Positions 6,936 through 30,174 of a stretch of 38,469 bases of DNA are shown piece after piece (the stretch's first letter is position 1; each line of letters begins with the position of its first letter). The translations under genes and the position numbers were made by a program. The DNA is from Anaerolineae bacterium (GTDB taxonomy: Bacteria; Chloroflexota; Anaerolineae; Aggregatilineales; J027), in contig JBNLCD010000003.1 of assembly GCA_050303635.1 (NCBI GenBank), positions 1-38,469 of the forward strand. Reading direction: 5' to 3'. Under the pieces are notes generated by a model. The model was not told where the DNA came from and did no database searches. It saw only the letters and a program-made list of their open reading frames with translations.

Positions 6936-6938
6936 GTG

Positions 6939-7012
6939 CGTGCCCGGAGGGACTCGAACCCCCGACCTATTGTTCCGTAGACAATCGCTCTAATCCACTG
7001 AGCTACGGGCAC
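6939..7012 (-). tRNA. tRNA-Arg(ACG)
   Basis: Minus strand GTGCCCGTAGCTCAGTGGATTAGAGCG-ATTGT-CT ACG GA-ACAAT-AGGTCGGGGGTTCGAGTCCCTCCGGGCACG; no encoded CCA. Confidence 0.96.
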
Positions 7013-7104: not shown

Positions 7105-7644
7105 CTAGCGGCTCTTAAATTCTATGAATTTCTTCCAAGAAGCCGGTCCAGTCCCAACTTCGAGAACTAAATAGTTTGTTCTCGGTCTTCTGGGTTCCCA
7201 AAGGAGTTTCATACCTGCTTCACCTGGTAGACGACTGCCCTTCTTGCGATTACAAACATAGCAAGCACAAGCGGTATTTGTCCAAACATCTTTGCCGCCA
7301 CGTGAACGAGGCAAAATGTGGTCAATCGTCATATCGCTTTTGTTGAGTGGCTTGCCTTGAACCATGTCGCCCGGCTTACGTGAGCAATAAATACACACAT
7401 AATTGTCGCGGGTTAAAACAGCCCGCCGACTCCATGTTGCTTGGCGACGTGGCACGTTAATAAAAGTTTTCAGGGCAATAACGGACGGAATAGGAAAAAT
7501 TTCGTGCACACTACGTAAAACCTGCCCCGTTTGCTCAACAATGATTGCTTTGTTGGCTAGAAGCAGGTTGATGGCTCGTGGAATACTAATAATGTCTAGC
7601 GGTTCCCAAGTACTACCATTTAGGAGGAGAACTCTCCCGTGCAA
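7105..7644 (-). CDS. HNH endonuclease (McrA-like, zinc-binding)
   Basis: VLLLNGSTWEPL N-terminus; RDNYVCIYC; TIDHILPRSRGG..WTNTACACYVCNRKKG. Confidence 0.92.
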   Translation of the reverse strand: MHGRVLLLNGSTWEPLDIISIPRAINLLLANKAIIVEQTGQVLRSVHEIFPIPSVIALKTFINVPRRQATWSRRAVLTRDNYVCIYCSRKPGDMVQGKPLNKSDMTIDHILPRSRGGKDVWTNTACACYVCNRKKGSRLPGEAGMKLLWEPRRPRTNYLVLEVGTGPASWKKFIEFKSR

Positions 7645-7682
7645 GGTGGTTTATCCTTAATCTATTTGACCACTTACTTCAT

Positions 7683-7722
7683 ATTATACGGTATAGTGCT
7701 TGTTTGTACAAAATTGTACAAA
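7683..7722 (-). promoter_or_regulatory. Putative HNH promoter with an overlapping palindromic operator
   Basis: Minus strand TTGTAC (7711-7706), 17 bp, TATAAT (7688-7683); TTTGTACA-AAAT-TGTACAAA palindrome at 7703-7722 covers the -35. Confidence 0.5.
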
Positions 7723-7760
7723 TTAAATTATGGTTAAATATTTGAATCCTGTTAACCTAC

Positions 7761-7789
7761 TTGACTGACCTGTATTGAACCCTTATACT
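7761..7789 (+). promoter_or_regulatory. Sigma70-type promoter P1 of the HTH gene
   Basis: TTGACT, 17 bp, TATACT. Confidence 0.6.
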
Positions 7790-7832
7790 ATCAAAAAACA
7801 TCTACACCTAAATTACTATAAAATATTTGTTG

Positions 7833-7861
7833 TTGACAAGGGTTATAACATTTTGTATAGT
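7833..7861 (+). promoter_or_regulatory. Sigma70-type promoter P2 of the HTH gene
   Basis: TTGACA, 17 bp, TATAGT. Confidence 0.7.
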
Positions 7862-7887
7862 TTAGAATGGATTGGAGGATTACTCCG

Positions 7888-8121
7888 ATGAGTGCAACTG
7901 TAAAAGCTAGGCAGTCAGCAGAAGGGAAACCTGGTATTCAACCAAACGCTGTTTATTCCCGCAAGGAAGCGGCGCACGCTCTAGGTGTGAGTTTGAGTAC
8001 TTTGAAGAAACTTATAGACAATGGTTTTCTACAAGTTTCGCAACCTCCCGGTATGCGCCGTGTGTTCATCAAAGGTAGTAGCATCTTAAGTATGCTCGAC
8101 CAAACCATGTTGGACACGTAG
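7888..8121 (+). CDS. Small helix-turn-helix DNA-binding protein (HTH_17 / excisionase-like fold)
   Basis: YSRKEAAHALGVSLSTLKKLIDNGFL...RRVFI; GGAGG RBS at 7874-7878 favours ATG 7888 over 7867. Confidence 0.85.
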   Translation: MSATVKARQSAEGKPGIQPNAVYSRKEAAHALGVSLSTLKKLIDNGFLQVSQPPGMRRVFIKGSSILSMLDQTMLDT

Positions 8122-8160
8122 TTCGTTTTAGTCATTTTATTCGTTTGATCTAATGTAGAA

Positions 8161-8637
8161 AGTGGGGTCTGATGTCCCAATTTTATTCGATAGCCGAGGT
8201 AAATAAACTCCTCCCCAATGGTGCAGTATTGCCCATCCCAGGGATGAATCCGTTTACCGTAACTGGCCTAAGCGTGCTGAATAGCCACCCCGAAGCGGGG
8301 CTTAGCTATCCATTGCCCGCACCTGAGGGTGTAGCACGCAGTGACTCTGGCAACATGCTAGTAGTCAACCCAGATTGGCTTATCGAACGGGATGCCGCCG
8401 GATTTAACATTAACACCGGAGCAGGCCACGATAGAAACGTGGACATCAAGATTAGCAGTTTAACAAATGACTTTCGCCAAGATTTATCGCGACCCTACGC
8501 TGGCGTACCAGGGTGCAGGAGGATGCACGAGCGGCATAAAAACCGCCACTAACGCACACTGGTAATCGGTGAAGCCCAATATTCGGGGCGTAGGGTCTAA
8601 GTCATAGCGACAAAATCCTACGCCCCGATTTTTATTT
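8161..8637 (+). ncRNA. Putative large structured RNA / regulatory leader of unknown class
   Basis: Many nested long-range helices, one crossing helix pair (pseudoknot), G-U pairs mostly favouring the + strand, ending in a strong terminator; see findings. Confidence 0.65.
8583..8637 (+). terminator. Intrinsic terminator / attenuator
   Basis: TCGGGGCGTAGGG (8583-8595) / TCCTACGCCCCGA (8616-8628) followed by TTTTTATTT. Confidence 0.85.
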
Positions 8638-8674
8638 GGGTGTGGGTAACTTGAAAATTTAAGGTGTGACAACC

Positions 8675-8956
8675 ATGACCCACTTACAGAACATAACTAA
8701 GGAAAGACGACAAATCACCGATTTGCACTTAGAAACCCTGCTGGAAACATTGGATCGTATCCATAGTGCCGCTTCAAACGGTACCCTAGCAGATGAAACG
8801 ACTATCGACGAACATGAATTAAAAGGTTGGCTGGAAGACATCATTTATACAGCACAAGAAACTATAAATGAGTTGGCGGCCAACGCCGAAGACACACAGC
8901 AAACCGCTTTGAATATCGCGAACCTGTCTGTCATCCGCTTATACAGTCGTAGTTAA
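8675..8956 (+). CDS. Hypothetical acidic helical protein (93 aa)
   Basis: Protein-like composition (LETLLETLDRIHSAAS...WLEDIIYTAQETINEL); AAGGTG RBS at 8661-8666 before ATG 8675. Confidence 0.75.
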   Translation: MTHLQNITKERRQITDLHLETLLETLDRIHSAASNGTLADETTIDEHELKGWLEDIIYTAQETINELAANAEDTQQTALNIANLSVIRLYSRS

Positions 8957-8989
8957 TCAATAGAAACATCCTAATTCAAAGGAGGCAAC

Positions 8990-9211
8990 ATGTTTAAACG
9001 ACATATCTGACATCCACCAATTAAATTTGGTAAGAAGCTGAGTGATACTGCTCAGGCAAAATTAAGTCGTGATCTTATTTTTAAGTTGTTGGGGAAAAAT
9101 AGCCCCGTAGGAGAGATGACACAATGCATCTTCAACATGTGCGACATCATTATCAGCCAAAATTCGGTAAATATTGCGCGATGCAAACACAAAAACAAAG
9201 CGCCGCCCTAG
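8990..9211 (+). pseudogene. Small ORF interrupted by TGA at codon 7 (or a 6-aa peptide MFKRHI)
   Basis: Strong AAAGGAGG RBS at 8978-8985; MFKRHI*HPPIKFGKKLSD... stays open to TAG at 9209-9211. Confidence 0.35.
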
Positions 9212-9267
9212 TGATGTTTAATGCGGCAGAAAAGGAATTACTCAATGTCACGTTGTTACTCGATTAG
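9124..9267 (+). CDS. Putative 47-aa peptide
   Basis: AGGAGAG RBS at 9109-9115; MHLQHVRHHYQPKFGKYCAMQTQKQSAALVMFNAAEKELLNVTLLLD*; below the ORF-track length cut-off. Confidence 0.35.
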   Translation: MHLQHVRHHYQPKFGKYCAMQTQKQSAALVMFNAAEKELLNVTLLLD

Positions 9268-9500
9268 CAAACAACACAGACCAAGTTATCGCTCAAACCA
9301 TAAGCGCACCAGTCGACGGCAAATTGCTGGTCGTAAATCCAATATTACGGGTGGTGGGATAAATAGTGACCAACATCCGGACGGTGGAGGCGAGTGGTAT
9401 GGAGATTTCCGTTTAGCGCTTGTTACGTCTAGGAAATGTAGCAAGGAGCATTCAAACTTAGATTATCCTACTGAATTTTGCGACATTTTATTGGCTATTT

Positions 9501-9566
9501 AACCCCGATGTTGTGTCCTCTAGCTTAATAGAGGCAAATGCACATAACATCGGGTTCGTTTTTTTT
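9501..9566 (+). terminator. Intrinsic terminator with an internal hairpin
   Basis: AACCCCGATGTTGTGT (9501-9516) / ACATAACATCGGGTT (9542-9556), inner CCTCTA/TAGAGG, then T8. Confidence 0.8.
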
Positions 9567-9696
9567 ATTTGAGATTACACCTCTGTTTTTTCTAAAATTG
9601 ATACCTCTAAATAATTCATAGCTTTGCTAGGCAATCCCCATTAAAAACGCTACAATGAACTCTCAATATTGTTATAAATCATGAAGGAAATAATCC

Positions 9697-10335
9697 GTGC
9701 AGGAACTTGATAAAACGATTGATGAAATTAGTGATGAATTTGAAGGTTTAAATACCGCCCGTGAAGCAACCTTAGCCCGTACCCGGAAGTTAATTAGATT
9801 ATGCGCCAATACCATTCGGGCGATTCATCGTCGGGAATGGGAGAATGCCCAAGAGGGTTTGGCTAAAGCTAAAGAAGTTGCCGAGAATCTGGCGGCTGAA
9901 ATCGTCGAGTACCCTGAATTATATAATAGTGGCTATACCCAAGATTCATTACGTGAATATGCTGAGGCTAATCTTACGTATGTTCTAGTCCGTGGTGAAT
10001 CTCTGCCTAGCCACACCGATCTCAATATTCCCCCCGCAACCTATCTAAATGGTTTGGCTGAAGCGGCGACTGAATTGCGTCGCCATATTTTGGATATTAT
10101 TCGTCACCAGCATGATGCTGAAGCCGAACGCATGTTAGAAGCGATGGATGCGATTTATAGCCATTTGATCACGGTTGATTATACCGATGCGATCACCCAC
10201 GGTTTGCGGCGTCGCACCGATGTTTTGCGCAATGTTCTTGAGCGCACACGCGGTGATTTGACAACTAGTTTACGCCAACAACAACTTCAAGATGCGTTGC
10301 AAGCCTTGGAGAAAAAGGTAGGAATTGAAGAATGA
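9697..10335 (+). CDS. Translin/TRAX-family protein (C3PO-like RNase)
   Basis: All-helical 212 aa; ARE...TRKLIRLCANTIRAIHR, QDSLREYAEA, YLNGLAEAATELRR, LRRRTD match translin-family motifs. Confidence 0.85.
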   Translation: MQELDKTIDEISDEFEGLNTAREATLARTRKLIRLCANTIRAIHRREWENAQEGLAKAKEVAENLAAEIVEYPELYNSGYTQDSLREYAEANLTYVLVRGESLPSHTDLNIPPATYLNGLAEAATELRRHILDIIRHQHDAEAERMLEAMDAIYSHLITVDYTDAITHGLRRRTDVLRNVLERTRGDLTTSLRQQQLQDALQALEKKVGIEE

Positions 10336-10520
10336 GTTTCAAACGCAATGAAATGCTGACTGCTTCTGAAGTTGCCCGCTATGTCTATTGCAAGCGGGCT
10401 TGGTCCTATGACCGGCAGGGTAAGATTCGGGAGAAAAAGAAACCGGCAACAGCCATTTTATTGTTTAGCCTGAGTTGGGTTGTAGTTTTGGTCGCGGTGG
10501 TAGGATGGATAACGCTGTAA
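10332..10520 (+). CDS. Small membrane protein carrying the Cas4-like N-terminal Cys motif
   Basis: LTASEVARYVYCKRAW resembles the Cas4 N-terminal motif; C-terminal TM helix; overlaps the translin stop (ATGA). Confidence 0.75.
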   Translation: MSFKRNEMLTASEVARYVYCKRAWSYDRQGKIREKKKPATAILLFSLSWVVVLVAVVGWITL

Positions 10521-11015
10521 ATGAGCTTGGTTTTAGTTATTCTGGGATTATTGATTGGGAGTGTGTTGCTTTGGGTCGGTGGACGGTGGCTTCGTCAACG
10601 ACTTAGTGGTAATCCTTTTCCTAATCTACAAGGACAACTGGTCTCATCTAAATATGGTGTCACGGGTAAACCGGATTTAATCCTTGAACAGGGTGGCTAT
10701 CCTATTCCCGTGATTACCAAACGGGGTAAAGCGCCCAAATCACCCCACGATAGTCACGTGGCACAAATTCTGGTCCATTGCTTGCTGATCGAGGATATAA
10801 CGCAAATTACCCCACCTTATGGCGTGATTCGCTACGACAATCGTACATTTGAAGTTGATTATGACAACGAAATGTATGAGATGTTGGTTGACCTACTAGA
10901 TGAAATGCACCACGAGCGCGAGCAAGAGCTAACCCTTCTGCCACGTTCCCACCGTAAAAAACACCATTGTGCGGGTTGTCGTCATCGTAAGAAATGTGAC
11001 GAGTCCCTAATCTAA
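10521..11015 (+). CDS. Membrane-anchored Cas4-like PD-(D/E)xK-fold protein, not CRISPR-linked
   Basis: N-terminal TM; YGVTGKPDLI, PIPVITK, HVAQILVHCLLIE, PYGVIRY, C-terminal CAGC-x5-C. Confidence 0.82.
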   Translation: MSLVLVILGLLIGSVLLWVGGRWLRQRLSGNPFPNLQGQLVSSKYGVTGKPDLILEQGGYPIPVITKRGKAPKSPHDSHVAQILVHCLLIEDITQITPPYGVIRYDNRTFEVDYDNEMYEMLVDLLDEMHHEREQELTLLPRSHRKKHHCAGCRHRKKCDESLI

Positions 11016-28251: not shown

Positions 28252-30174
28252 TCATTCTGGCCAAACCAACTCCCATAAAACAATATCTTGATCATAACTT
28301 GCTGTGGCCAGAATATTTTCGGTCGGGTGCCATTGCATATCTGTTATGGATGAGTTCGAACCCTCCACTTTTTGTAACAGGGTCAAGTCATTTAAATCCC
28401 AAAGTCGTAACGTGCCATCTTGGTGTCCGCTGATCAGTAAATTTTGACTTGGATGCCATGCAAGTTCATAGGTTGGGTTATCTGTATCAATTTCGATAAC
28501 CTTATCCGTAACAATATTCCAAATAAATATACGACCTTCACTATTACCTAAAGCCAGTTGTTTGCCATCACTTGACCAAACTGCGTCATAGAGAAAACTG
28601 GAGCGGTCATCACGCTCAAATCCACTTAGATCATTTCGTTCCGCAATAATCTCTTGAGAGTTGTAATCATAAATAACCACATTCGATCCGAAATAAAAGG
28701 CAATCTTTGAACCATCCGGCGACCACGATGATAGCCTAAATGGTGCATTTAATATTGCTAAATCACTGCTAAGTTCTAGATTTTCGTCGAGGATATGGGT
28801 GTCGGCATAATGAACCAAGATTGTCTTATCAATTGGATGAACACTGATACGGACAAAATCTTGGGCCTTGATTGGTGAATGCCACTCTGCTTCTAAATCA
28901 CAATCTTGCCAATTCCATTTACGGATAGTCATTTCCCAAAATTGACTAGTAAAAATGTAGTTTCCCGTGTTATCCCACTCTAAATCAGCGATGAAAGCGC
29001 GTGGCGTATCACACCCTACCACCAGTTGATGCGTGTCTTGACTCCAAATGCGGAGACGATTATCCCCAAATGGTCCATCCGTAATCCGATAACCACCATG
29101 CCCACTCGCTAAATATTGACCATCGAGACTCCAACCTAAGGTGTCTGTCCACCGATAATGTTCATACAGGGTATTCAATAATACCCCTGATTCAGCATCA
29201 AATATTTGAGCACCACCCACGTCTGATACAAGGATATGATGACCATTGGGTTGCCAATCGATATGACGACCAAAAACTTCGCGGAAAGAAATTTCTGGCT
29301 CTAAATCGATGGGTTCTAAAGTATCAACTGATAAAATTTCCACCGTTGAATCAGGCGAAGTAATCGCAATTTGCGAGCTGTCAGACTTCCAACTTACCCC
29401 GCTGGTCCATTCATCATAAAAATCTACTTTTTTCGCGAGCAGTTGACCTGTTTCAGTGTCAAATAAAGCGAGTTGCGGTATTTCTTGATTGGCCAAGCCT
29501 GTAAATTGGGTATGTTCAGCATTCCATGCCACAGACTGACTACAAGCGCGTCCGAGCAAAATATTATCAATGCGTGTTTCGTCCAGAACCTGACCAGACT
29601 GACTTTGTATTTGACGTAACTGAGGCCCATTTTCATCTTGGCCAAGTATGCCCAGCGTATCATTATCGAACCACTCTATTACATAAGGTATATATACATT
29701 TGCATCGCCGATGGATGGATAGGTAAAAATTATTTCATTGTTGTTCACACCAATTACTTCTATTTGATGATTAGGATTGTAGAGTGCTAGCTTTTGTCCA
29801 TCAGGGCTAAGCGTTGAGCAAAAATATTGCCCTTCAACGGATAACAGATTTTCAGTCGCTAGATCCAAAACAAAAATATTATTCTCTTCATCAGAAATAA
29901 CCAAATGATGATTATTTTCACTCCACTGCACACTATCCAGTGGTATATCTATAACGTGTTTTATGAGTTCAAACTCAGGTGTATACAGCCATAAGCCCTT
30001 GGAGCCCACAACTGCTATCATTGAACCATCTGAACTCCATTGACTGTCTAGAATCGAACCTCGCCCTAGGTGCTCAAGTTCAACCAATTGGGGTGTATTG
30101 GAATTATTTTGAGAATAAACGAACTGAGGAAAAACAAAGACTAGACCCAGTAAAAAGATCACTAATTTTGACAT
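28252..30174 (-). CDS. Secreted WD40 beta-propeller protein
   Basis: Signal peptide; many W(S/H)PDG...ASG..D..LRIW repeats. Confidence 0.88.
   Translation of the reverse strand: MSKLVIFLLGLVFVFPQFVYSQNNSNTPQLVELEHLGRGSILDSQWSSDGSMIAVVGSKGLWLYTPEFELIKHVIDIPLDSVQWSENNHHLVISDEENNIFVLDLATENLLSVEGQYFCSTLSPDGQKLALYNPNHQIEVIGVNNNEIIFTYPSIGDANVYIPYVIEWFDNDTLGILGQDENGPQLRQIQSQSGQVLDETRIDNILLGRACSQSVAWNAEHTQFTGLANQEIPQLALFDTETGQLLAKKVDFYDEWTSGVSWKSDSSQIAITSPDSTVEILSVDTLEPIDLEPEISFREVFGRHIDWQPNGHHILVSDVGGAQIFDAESGVLLNTLYEHYRWTDTLGWSLDGQYLASGHGGYRITDGPFGDNRLRIWSQDTHQLVVGCDTPRAFIADLEWDNTGNYIFTSQFWEMTIRKWNWQDCDLEAEWHSPIKAQDFVRISVHPIDKTILVHYADTHILDENLELSSDLAILNAPFRLSSWSPDGSKIAFYFGSNVVIYDYNSQEIIAERNDLSGFERDDRSSFLYDAVWSSDGKQLALGNSEGRIFIWNIVTDKVIEIDTDNPTYELAWHPSQNLLISGHQDGTLRLWDLNDLTLLQKVEGSNSSITDMQWHPTENILATASYDQDIVLWELVWPE

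Follow-up and report, generated by a model that had tools for sequence, protein, structure and literature searches.

The gene for a protein of 93 amino acids (93-aa) on a contig from an Anaerolineae bacterium (assembly GCA_050303635.1, contig JBNLCD010000003.1; phylum Chloroflexota, class Anaerolineae) is preceded by a strong transcription terminator, and an exact complement of part of that terminator lies a short distance upstream. The question that this locus raises is whether the two helices that can be drawn from these strands form a switch between termination and read-through, and, if they do, what sets it. The window, that is, the whole stretch of DNA that was analyzed, comprises positions 1 to 38,469 of the forward strand of this contig, and the source genome is 85.6% complete in 959 contigs. 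A first-pass annotation of the window had proposed a mutually exclusive terminator/antiterminator arrangement with the logic of riboswitches and attenuators, placed directly in front of the 93-aa gene. The comparison with related genomes described here bears out the two competing helices and places the upstream strand inside a conserved open reading frame (ORF), which points to the translating ribosome as the candidate input.

Two helices that share one strand

The complementarity extends over 10 nucleotides (nt): GACCCTACGC at 8491-8500 has as its reverse complement GCGTAGGGTC, which is found at 8588-8597 within the 5′ arm of the terminator hairpin, and strings and predicted fold agree with the first-pass annotation on this point. 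The terminator is a G+C-rich hairpin of 14 base pairs (bp) on the plus strand (8583-8596/8615-8628) with a loop of 18 nt, followed by the U-run TTTTTATTT (8629-8637); the stretch 8583-8637 thus carries both hallmarks of an intrinsic, Rho-independent terminator. A simple terminator scan missed it because of its loop limit of 8 nt. The region 8480-8645 has a folding energy of −63.3 kcal/mol (z −3.53), a value matched by 1 of 200 shuffled sequences.

The upstream strand is referred to as strand A, the 5′ arm of the terminator as strand B, and its 3′ arm as strand C. The A:B helix of the window has 11 bp—10 Watson–Crick pairs and the G-U pair 8501/8587, the latter as judged by the alignment of relatives (A2, described below). 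Since 8491-8501 pairs with 8587-8597 and 8583-8596 pairs with 8615-8628, the two helices exclude each other. Their duplex energies in the window are −22.3 kcal/mol for A:B and −28.5 kcal/mol for B:C.

Taken alone, an inverted repeat of this length is not rare. About 5 exact 10-nt inverted repeats within 160 nt are expected by chance per window (38469 × 150 / 4^10), and 22 such 10-mers at about 10 places are seen; it is the conservation in other genomes, therefore, that argues against chance. The three-strand element occurs as a single copy in its genome. The 10-mer GGGGCGTAGG was also considered as a repeat family, which was rejected since its genome counts (5 forward and 1 reverse) are no higher than those of a control (6 and 3).

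Conservation and covariation in relatives

Relatives were collected by a scan with an alignment of the protein encoded upstream of the switch, a helix-turn-helix (HTH) protein, in one genome per species. The scan gave 268 relatives, and 80 loci were fetched and examined. The HTH and 93-aa genes are syntenic in these relatives—the 93-aa gene lies 259-680 nt downstream of the HTH stop codon in 70 of the 80 loci—and the DNA and protein between them are not recognizably conserved. A hairpin with a T-run stands shortly before the 93-aa gene in 70 of 70 loci, with a stem of at least 11 bp in 67 of them. Three of the 70 were dropped for shorter stems, and the sequence-only MAFFT alignment A2 hence holds 68 loci, the window and 67 others. 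Strand A lies approximately 60-95 nt upstream of the terminator in A2. The A:B pairs of the window occupy columns 87-97 and 224-234, in register with the helix of the family, and by synteny and by this register the window belongs to the module.

Both helices are conserved as pairings, and both show compensatory changes. For A:B (16 pairs), 80.1% of 938 cells are paired compared with 31-42.5% when the partner is slid by 1-3 columns; for B:C (17 pairs), the figures are 86.7% compared with 31-54%. Double changes occur in 13 pairs of A:B (125 cells) and in 17 of 17 pairs of B:C, and the A:B pairing and covariation scores were reached by none of 500 shuffles. G-U pairs outnumber A-C oppositions in both helices (114 to 39 for A:B, 74 to 18 for B:C). 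This excess indicates selection on pairing in the plus-strand RNA, and the same asymmetry led to the rejection of a DNA-level reading, in which strands A, B, and C would be half-sites bound by the HTH protein. Versions of strand A include CAGTCTTACG, GGTCCCACG, CGGTTCAACG, ATCCACGC, and GACCCTACG of the window, each of which fits its own strand B. The locus L028, from the genus of the window, features strand A as GGTCCTAC with GTAGGACC, changed in a compensatory manner relative to the window. An ACG/CGU core of strands A, B, and C is at least 90% invariant across the class. Because compensatory change is found in both helices across relatives, the 10-nt complement is not a product of chance, and A:B and B:C are very probably real, selected, and mutually exclusive RNA helices. 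The core of the first-pass annotation—a helix in competition with the terminator over shared nucleotides—is in this way upheld, and homologues that keep the terminator without the complement amount to only 9 of the 68 loci.

The alignments of the interior between A and B are poor. RNAalifold on the MAFFT segments from A to B (A3, 59 loci) returned 0 pairs, MAFFT having split strand A. As a separate observation, the loci L036-L039 carry a canonical-looking AGTCTCACC or ATCTCACC between the ORF stop codon and strand B, not complementary to their own diverged terminator arm; this motif is possibly a remnant of strand A or, alternatively, a site recognized by its sequence.

Order of folding

The folding of 59 loci was modeled by partition functions at three stages of the transcript. 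Before strand B is present, strand A has no consistent partner: its mean pairing probability is 0.26 with upstream and 0.22 with downstream sequence (0.14 and 0.01 in the window). Once B is present and C still absent, the mean probability of A:B is 0.82 (0.91 in the window) and exceeds 0.5 in 57 of 59 loci. At full length, A:B collapses, and B:C takes over with a mean of 0.86 and a value above 0.5 in 56 of 59 loci. In these models, the A:B/B:C pair is a kinetic switch. In the absence of C, nearly all loci form a junction closed by A:B that holds two to four G+C-rich hairpins, the ORF stop codon being located in the first. The length of this interior varies from approximately 45 to 100 nt. Nearly invariant columns of A2 are confined to strands A, B, and C; among 19 canonical loci, only three isolated positions outside these strands are nearly invariant.

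The modeled order leaves little room for the anti-antiterminator of the first-pass annotation, a local fold in which strand A is sequestered by the sequence directly downstream. The sequences at 8492-8514 and 8513-8528 read as had been claimed. The fold itself fails on several counts: the downstream pairing of strand A before B is the 0.01 given above and is not conserved across the 59 loci; its inner helix ACGC-TG-GCGT needs a loop of 2 nt, too short to be sterically possible; no local fold of 8488-8518 is more stable than −10.0 kcal/mol; and a natural variant, 8512 G>A, present in all four RNA-library runs considered below, breaks the pair C8494-G8512 with no compensating change. A nested helix between TACCAGGGTGC (8506-8516) and GCACACTGGTA (8554-8564) had been put forward as part of the read-through state. 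The two strings are complementary save for one opposed G/A, as proposed; the helix also forms alongside the terminator, however, and hence does not distinguish the two states.

An open reading frame through strand A

The element is not located in an untranslated leader. The first-pass annotation overlooked that strand A lies within a conserved open frame, 8172-8552, the middle ORF. The frame through A is stop-free from the HTH stop codon to A in 51 of 68 loci; for the two alternative frames, the counts are 5 and 12. The reading frame across strand A is fixed, its TAC being a codon; the loci L077, L078, and L100 use another frame. The longest plus-strand ORF in the gap ends 19-67 nt before strand B in 58 of the 68 loci. 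In 43 of these, it starts at −45 to +10 nt relative to the HTH stop codon. A comparable ORF ending between A and B is also present in the other 10. These ORFs comprise 38-157 codons, and their stop codon ends 16-65 nt after A (median 28). An ORF that overlaps the antiterminator strand, as in leader-peptide systems, is supplied by this conserved frame, and its translation is predicted.

As far as sequence comparison goes, it is the frame and its end points that are selected and not the protein, which is the pattern expected of a leader ORF. The peptide is barely conserved save for [Q/R]-S-[Y/H/N/Q], which is encoded by strand A itself; the middle ORF of the window has no family match and no tblastn match outside the window. 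Among 14 close pairs, ORF differences fall on codon positions 1/2/3 in the numbers 226/252/301, with 119 synonymous and 356 non-synonymous codons. Among the strain variants listed, the synonymous and non-synonymous counts are 4 and 9 for the middle ORF compared with 5 and 0 for the HTH gene and 13 and 5 for the 93-aa gene. A shared run of regulatory codons was not seen in 56 ORF peptides by inspection, which is not a formal test.

A Shine-Dalgarno-like 4-mer is located between strand A and the stop codon in 53 of 56 loci compared with 14.7% of equal-length upstream background windows. Its 3′ end mostly lies 9-16 nt before the stop codon, and it forms in addition the 5′ arm of the first interior hairpin. 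This internal site may hold the ribosome at the stop codon of the ORF. At the other end of the frame, a terminator-like hairpin with a T-run (8163-8179, plus strand) spans the ATG at 8172; shuffled sequences contain on average 2.3 such sites, and it may be due to chance.

Proposed mechanism and alternatives

The mechanism proposed is a conserved transcription attenuator between the cistrons of one operon, in the order HTH_17 gene, middle ORF, attenuator, and 93-aa gene. Strands A (8491-8501) and C (8615-8628) would compete for strand B (8583-8597). B:C together with the U-run would act as intrinsic terminator, and A:B would close the multi-hairpin junction and thereby withdraw B from the terminator. 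In naked RNA, A:B would form once B is transcribed, and the polymerase would read through into the 93-aa gene. The middle ORF would be translated from the region of the HTH stop codon, the ribosome ending between A and B. A ribosome close behind the polymerase would cover A and melt the first interior hairpin at the time when B and C are being made; B:C would then form and transcription would stop. With a ribosome that lags, is stalled, or is absent, A:B would form and the 93-aa gene would be transcribed. Given that the frame is conserved along with its start and stop, a ribosome translating the middle ORF has a little better than an even chance of being the input, both directions of the switch taken together. 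The direction just described, in which a close ribosome leads to termination and a lagging or absent one to read-through, is put forward tentatively, at somewhat under an even chance; it is favored because untranslated RNA has no way to hide strand A.

A number of points weigh against this account. Conditional termination itself, the ribosome as sensor, and the direction of the switch are all inferred. The direction is derived from geometry, and A is uncovered again once the ribosome stands at the stop codon, whose first base lies at least 14 nt beyond A; the occlusion argument, therefore, requires tight coupling or a steric effect. In the window, the ORF starts 51 nt after the HTH stop codon with no overlap (range of 47-51 nt with L028), and the distance from the Shine-Dalgarno-like element to the stop codon is 27 nt in the window and 18 nt in L028 instead of the usual 9-16 nt. 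Nine of the 68 loci keep the ORF and the terminator with no clear strand A at the aligned position—L029 and L031-L034, which represent one genus of the window's own family, together with L036-L038 and L040—and the modeled long-range partners of strand B are inconsistent in these nine. Two of the five A:B measures do not rise above shuffled data, namely the number of pairs with double changes (reached in 203 of 500 shuffles) and that of further pair types (167 of 500). As the loci share ancestry, several being near-duplicates, independent events are fewer than the cell counts suggest. A covariance model, R1, was built from 57 loci with the window left out; it gave the window 8.9 bits (E 0.25) and misaligned it, and its scan of the window's own genome returned nothing. 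R1 is weak, with 0.49 bits per position and a long variable interior, and was not used for distribution. Finally, contigs from four metatranscriptome runs of one study (records 5, 11, 17, and 24), 90-99% like the window, bridge the terminator and thereby speak for the presence of the joined form in RNA libraries; these contigs may, however, contain DNA.

Two further properties of the RNA-library contigs were not used as evidence. Their depth is lower past the terminator in some runs (X1: 71.5 compared with 29.3), and depth cannot show levels; none covers 7600-7860, the leftmost beginning at 7861, and contig ends cannot show starts. No strain difference falls in strand A, B, or C among the differences listed, 71 further ones being unlisted.

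In the opposite sense of the switch, which is unlikely, translation of the ORF would promote read-through by clearing A and releasing it as B emerges, and untranslated RNA would terminate; whether the 93-aa gene is transcribed would in that case depend on the upstream genes being actively translated. The geometry lends this some weight, since a ribosome at the stop codon has just freed A (its trailing edge lies approximately 0-20 nt beyond) and still covers the first interior hairpin, and a precedent is given by bmrB-bmrCD, where read-through needs translation of the leader ORF (Reilman et al. 2014, PMC4191407). Against it, no conserved partner sequesters A in the untranslated RNA, the modeled pairing (means of 0.26 upstream and 0.22 downstream) being spread over inconsistent sites, and in 57 of 59 loci A:B is the helix that naked RNA adopts in the models.

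A trans-acting factor—an RNA-binding protein, possibly the HTH or the 93-aa protein, or a small RNA—might instead bind the GUCUCACG/CGUGAGAC strands and pick A:B or B:C, the ribosome being incidental. This is slightly more doubtful still. The class-wide invariance of the ACG/CGU core goes beyond what the helices alone need, and the module always accompanies two small conserved proteins; three-way pairing together with coding can, however, account for slow sequence change, and the helices do change in several lineages (GGTCCCACG, CGGTTCAACG, ATCCACGC, and GACCCTACG). The excess of G-U over A-C favors pairing and not sequence read-out, family searches and structure comparison found no RNA-binding domain in either the HTH or the 93-aa protein, and a trans-acting factor leaves the conserved frame and stop position unexplained.

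It is improbable that the terminator is constitutive and leaky, fixing the ratio of upstream to downstream message, with A:B retained on other grounds, for example because it helps to fold or stabilize the 3′ end of the processed or terminated mRNA. That the terminator wins at equilibrium in 56 of 59 loci and that nine loci manage with no clear A would suit such a role. A compensated A-B complement at a fixed distance in at least 57 loci from several orders is hard to explain without competition.

A riboswitch, an analogy drawn in the first-pass annotation, fares worst and is very improbable; here a small molecule bound in the A:B-closed junction would stabilize A:B and turn the 93-aa gene on. 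In its favor, A:B is a closing helix of long range that has the terminator arm as its 3′ side and encloses two to four hairpins, and the gated protein, having no assigned function, leaves every ligand possible. Against it, no nearly invariant column is seen beyond strands A, B, and C, the loci differ in the length of the interior and in its number of hairpins, and the reading frame stays open through A and on into the first hairpin of the junction. A search of Rfam 15 gave nothing at gathering score, either in the window or at the corresponding place in 15 other loci (the best sub-threshold match, RT-8, has 22 bits against a cut-off of 87).

Gene context

The features of the locus are compiled in Table 1.

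Table 1. Coordinates of the switch, the middle ORF, and the adjoining features in the window
Feature	Position	Strand	Remarks
tRNA-Arg	6938-7012	−	Upstream of HTH gene
HNH endonuclease gene	7105-7644	−	Divergent from HTH gene
Promoter-like site (TTGACA, 17 nt, TATAGT)	7833-7861	+	11/12 consensus matches; consensus match only
HTH_17/excisionase-family DNA-binding protein gene, first of unit	7867-8121	+	PF12728, E 2.1e-6
Middle ORF, leader-like	8172-8552	+	126 codons; runs through A and stops between A and B
Strand A, antiterminator 5′ strand	8491-8501	+	Pairs with 8587-8597
Shine-Dalgarno-like AGGAGG in ORF	8518-8523	+	Loop of GTGCA/TGCAC hairpin (8513-8528); matches purine-rich arm of relatives' hairpin P2
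Stop codon TAA of middle ORF	8550-8552	+	52 nt after A end (as aligned), 34 nt before GGG of B
Strand B, terminator 5′ arm	8583-8596	+	8587-8597 common to A:B helix
Strand C, terminator 3′ arm	8615-8628	+	B:C duplex −28.5 kcal/mol
U-run TTTTTATTT	8629-8637	+	Kept in relatives
93-aa gene (gated gene), unnamed family	8675-8956	+	AAGGTG before ATG

The promoter-like site upstream of the HTH gene is the sole one on the plus strand within 7761-9569 in a consensus scan; the scan found no sigma-70-like plus-strand site in 7861-9569, and it cannot exclude other promoter types. The match of the HTH protein to TIGR01764 is below cut-off, and the protein is 60-77% identical to its relatives. Its gene probably starts at ATG 7888, behind GGAGG at 7874-7878, and not at 7867, the former start being common to most homologues.

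The 93-aa gene begins approximately 45 nt after the U-run. Its product could not be named: neither Pfam nor NCBIfam gives a match, and 16 homologues carry no useful names. AlphaFold2 predicts a helical hairpin (predicted local distance difference test score 76), for which Foldseek found no match in the PDB, and a scan of metagenome contigs with the 93-aa protein returned no relative.

Of the genes around the module, only that of the HNH endonuclease is kept beside it: in 42 of 80 loci, it precedes the HTH gene in divergent orientation, with at most 83% amino-acid identity; as judged by this synteny, it may belong to the same conserved module. Minus-strand tRNA genes upstream of the HTH gene are found in the window and in 6 of 20 scanned loci (L028, L039, L041, L090, L097, and L100), and their identities differ (Arg, Ser, Trp, Val, Val, and Leu). 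In one relative, the strand opposite to the HTH gene carries a T-box leader upstream of that gene (L092:2099-2343, minus strand, 105 bits). Downstream, the genes present on the plus strand at 9697-11015 include those for a translin-family and a Cas4/DUF83-like protein. Translin-like, Cas4-like, LuxR-type, and flavin reductase-like genes were rejected as members of the module since they are not kept beside it in the 80 loci. Further away, ARAGORN reports a 98-nt tRNA-Val (cac) at 29708-29805 (plus strand), for which the tRNA model of Rfam is silent at gathering score; it may be an intron-bearing tRNA or a false call.

Relation to known systems

Leader-peptide attenuators of the trp, his, leu, and thr type feature a middle strand with two competing pairings, 2:3 and 3:4, and a leader of approximately 15-30 codons; none of the leader families in Rfam matched the window. 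The element described here shares with the trp and his type one strand with two partners, an ORF over the antiterminator strand, and a terminator just before the gated gene; the presumed input is likewise the position of the ribosome relative to the polymerase. It features several differences compared with these attenuators: the ORF is 38-157 codons long, lies between two genes, and is usually coupled to the upstream stop codon; inspection showed no shared run of regulatory codons, and there is no conserved 1:2 anti-antiterminator or pause hairpin; and the stop codon lies downstream of the antiterminator strand.

In the rph-pyrE operon of Escherichia coli, a full-length cistron acts as leader, and termination between the cistrons depends on how translation is coupled to transcription; the ribosome itself blocks the terminator hairpin, and no antiterminator helix is known to be involved. 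A full-length upstream cistron as leader and a terminator between cistrons would be common to both systems; the separate, covarying antiterminator strand sets the present element apart from rph-pyrE, as does an ORF that ends too far upstream to reach the terminator.

In transcriptional riboswitches of the ON type, such as those responsive to adenine, the 3′ strand of P1 overlaps the terminator. The A:B helix is similar: strand B serves both as its 3′ side and in the 5′ arm of the terminator, and the helix encloses a junction of several hairpins. The element differs in having no conserved ligand-pocket nucleotide, in its variable interior, and in its location within an open frame, and an identity as a riboswitch is unlikely.

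The bmrB-bmrCD system of Bacillus subtilis features a leader ORF of 53 codons with alternative stem-loops and a terminator before the gated genes, read-through being set by translation; the bmrB terminator lies within the coding region, and the system answers to ribosome-targeting antibiotics (Reilman et al. 2014, PMC4191407). A fairly long leader ORF with alternative stem-loops and a terminator before the gated gene or genes is common to both. The element described here differs in that its ORF stops 19-67 nt before the terminator, a 93-aa protein is gated, and the hosts are Anaerolineae; no sequence relation was found between the two.

A full-text literature search on attenuators and antiterminators of Anaerolineae gave nothing relevant among the titles listed. 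On the best reading of these comparisons, the logic would be that of known ribosome-mediated attenuation, and the placement between cistrons together with the long, unconstrained, coupled ORF would be a new arrangement.

Significance

The cis-regulatory RNAs of Chloroflexota are, to our knowledge, almost unexplored. The element described here provides a natural three-strand terminator switch with dozens of covarying representatives, located between cistrons rather than in a 5′ leader. A broader claim, which is possible but doubtful, is that of a class-wide translation meter of Anaerolineae: a long ORF of irrelevant amino-acid sequence, coupled to the gene before it, would put a ribosome on the antiterminator strand, and the cell would thereby read the coupling of transcription and translation and switch on the 93-aa protein when coupling fails. 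If the ribosome is the sensor, a full-length ORF of unconstrained sequence can act as a leader peptide. The switch would then provide a handle on transcription–translation coupling in Chloroflexota, where we know of no study of it, and the 93-aa protein and its HTH partner would become candidates for a translation stress response.

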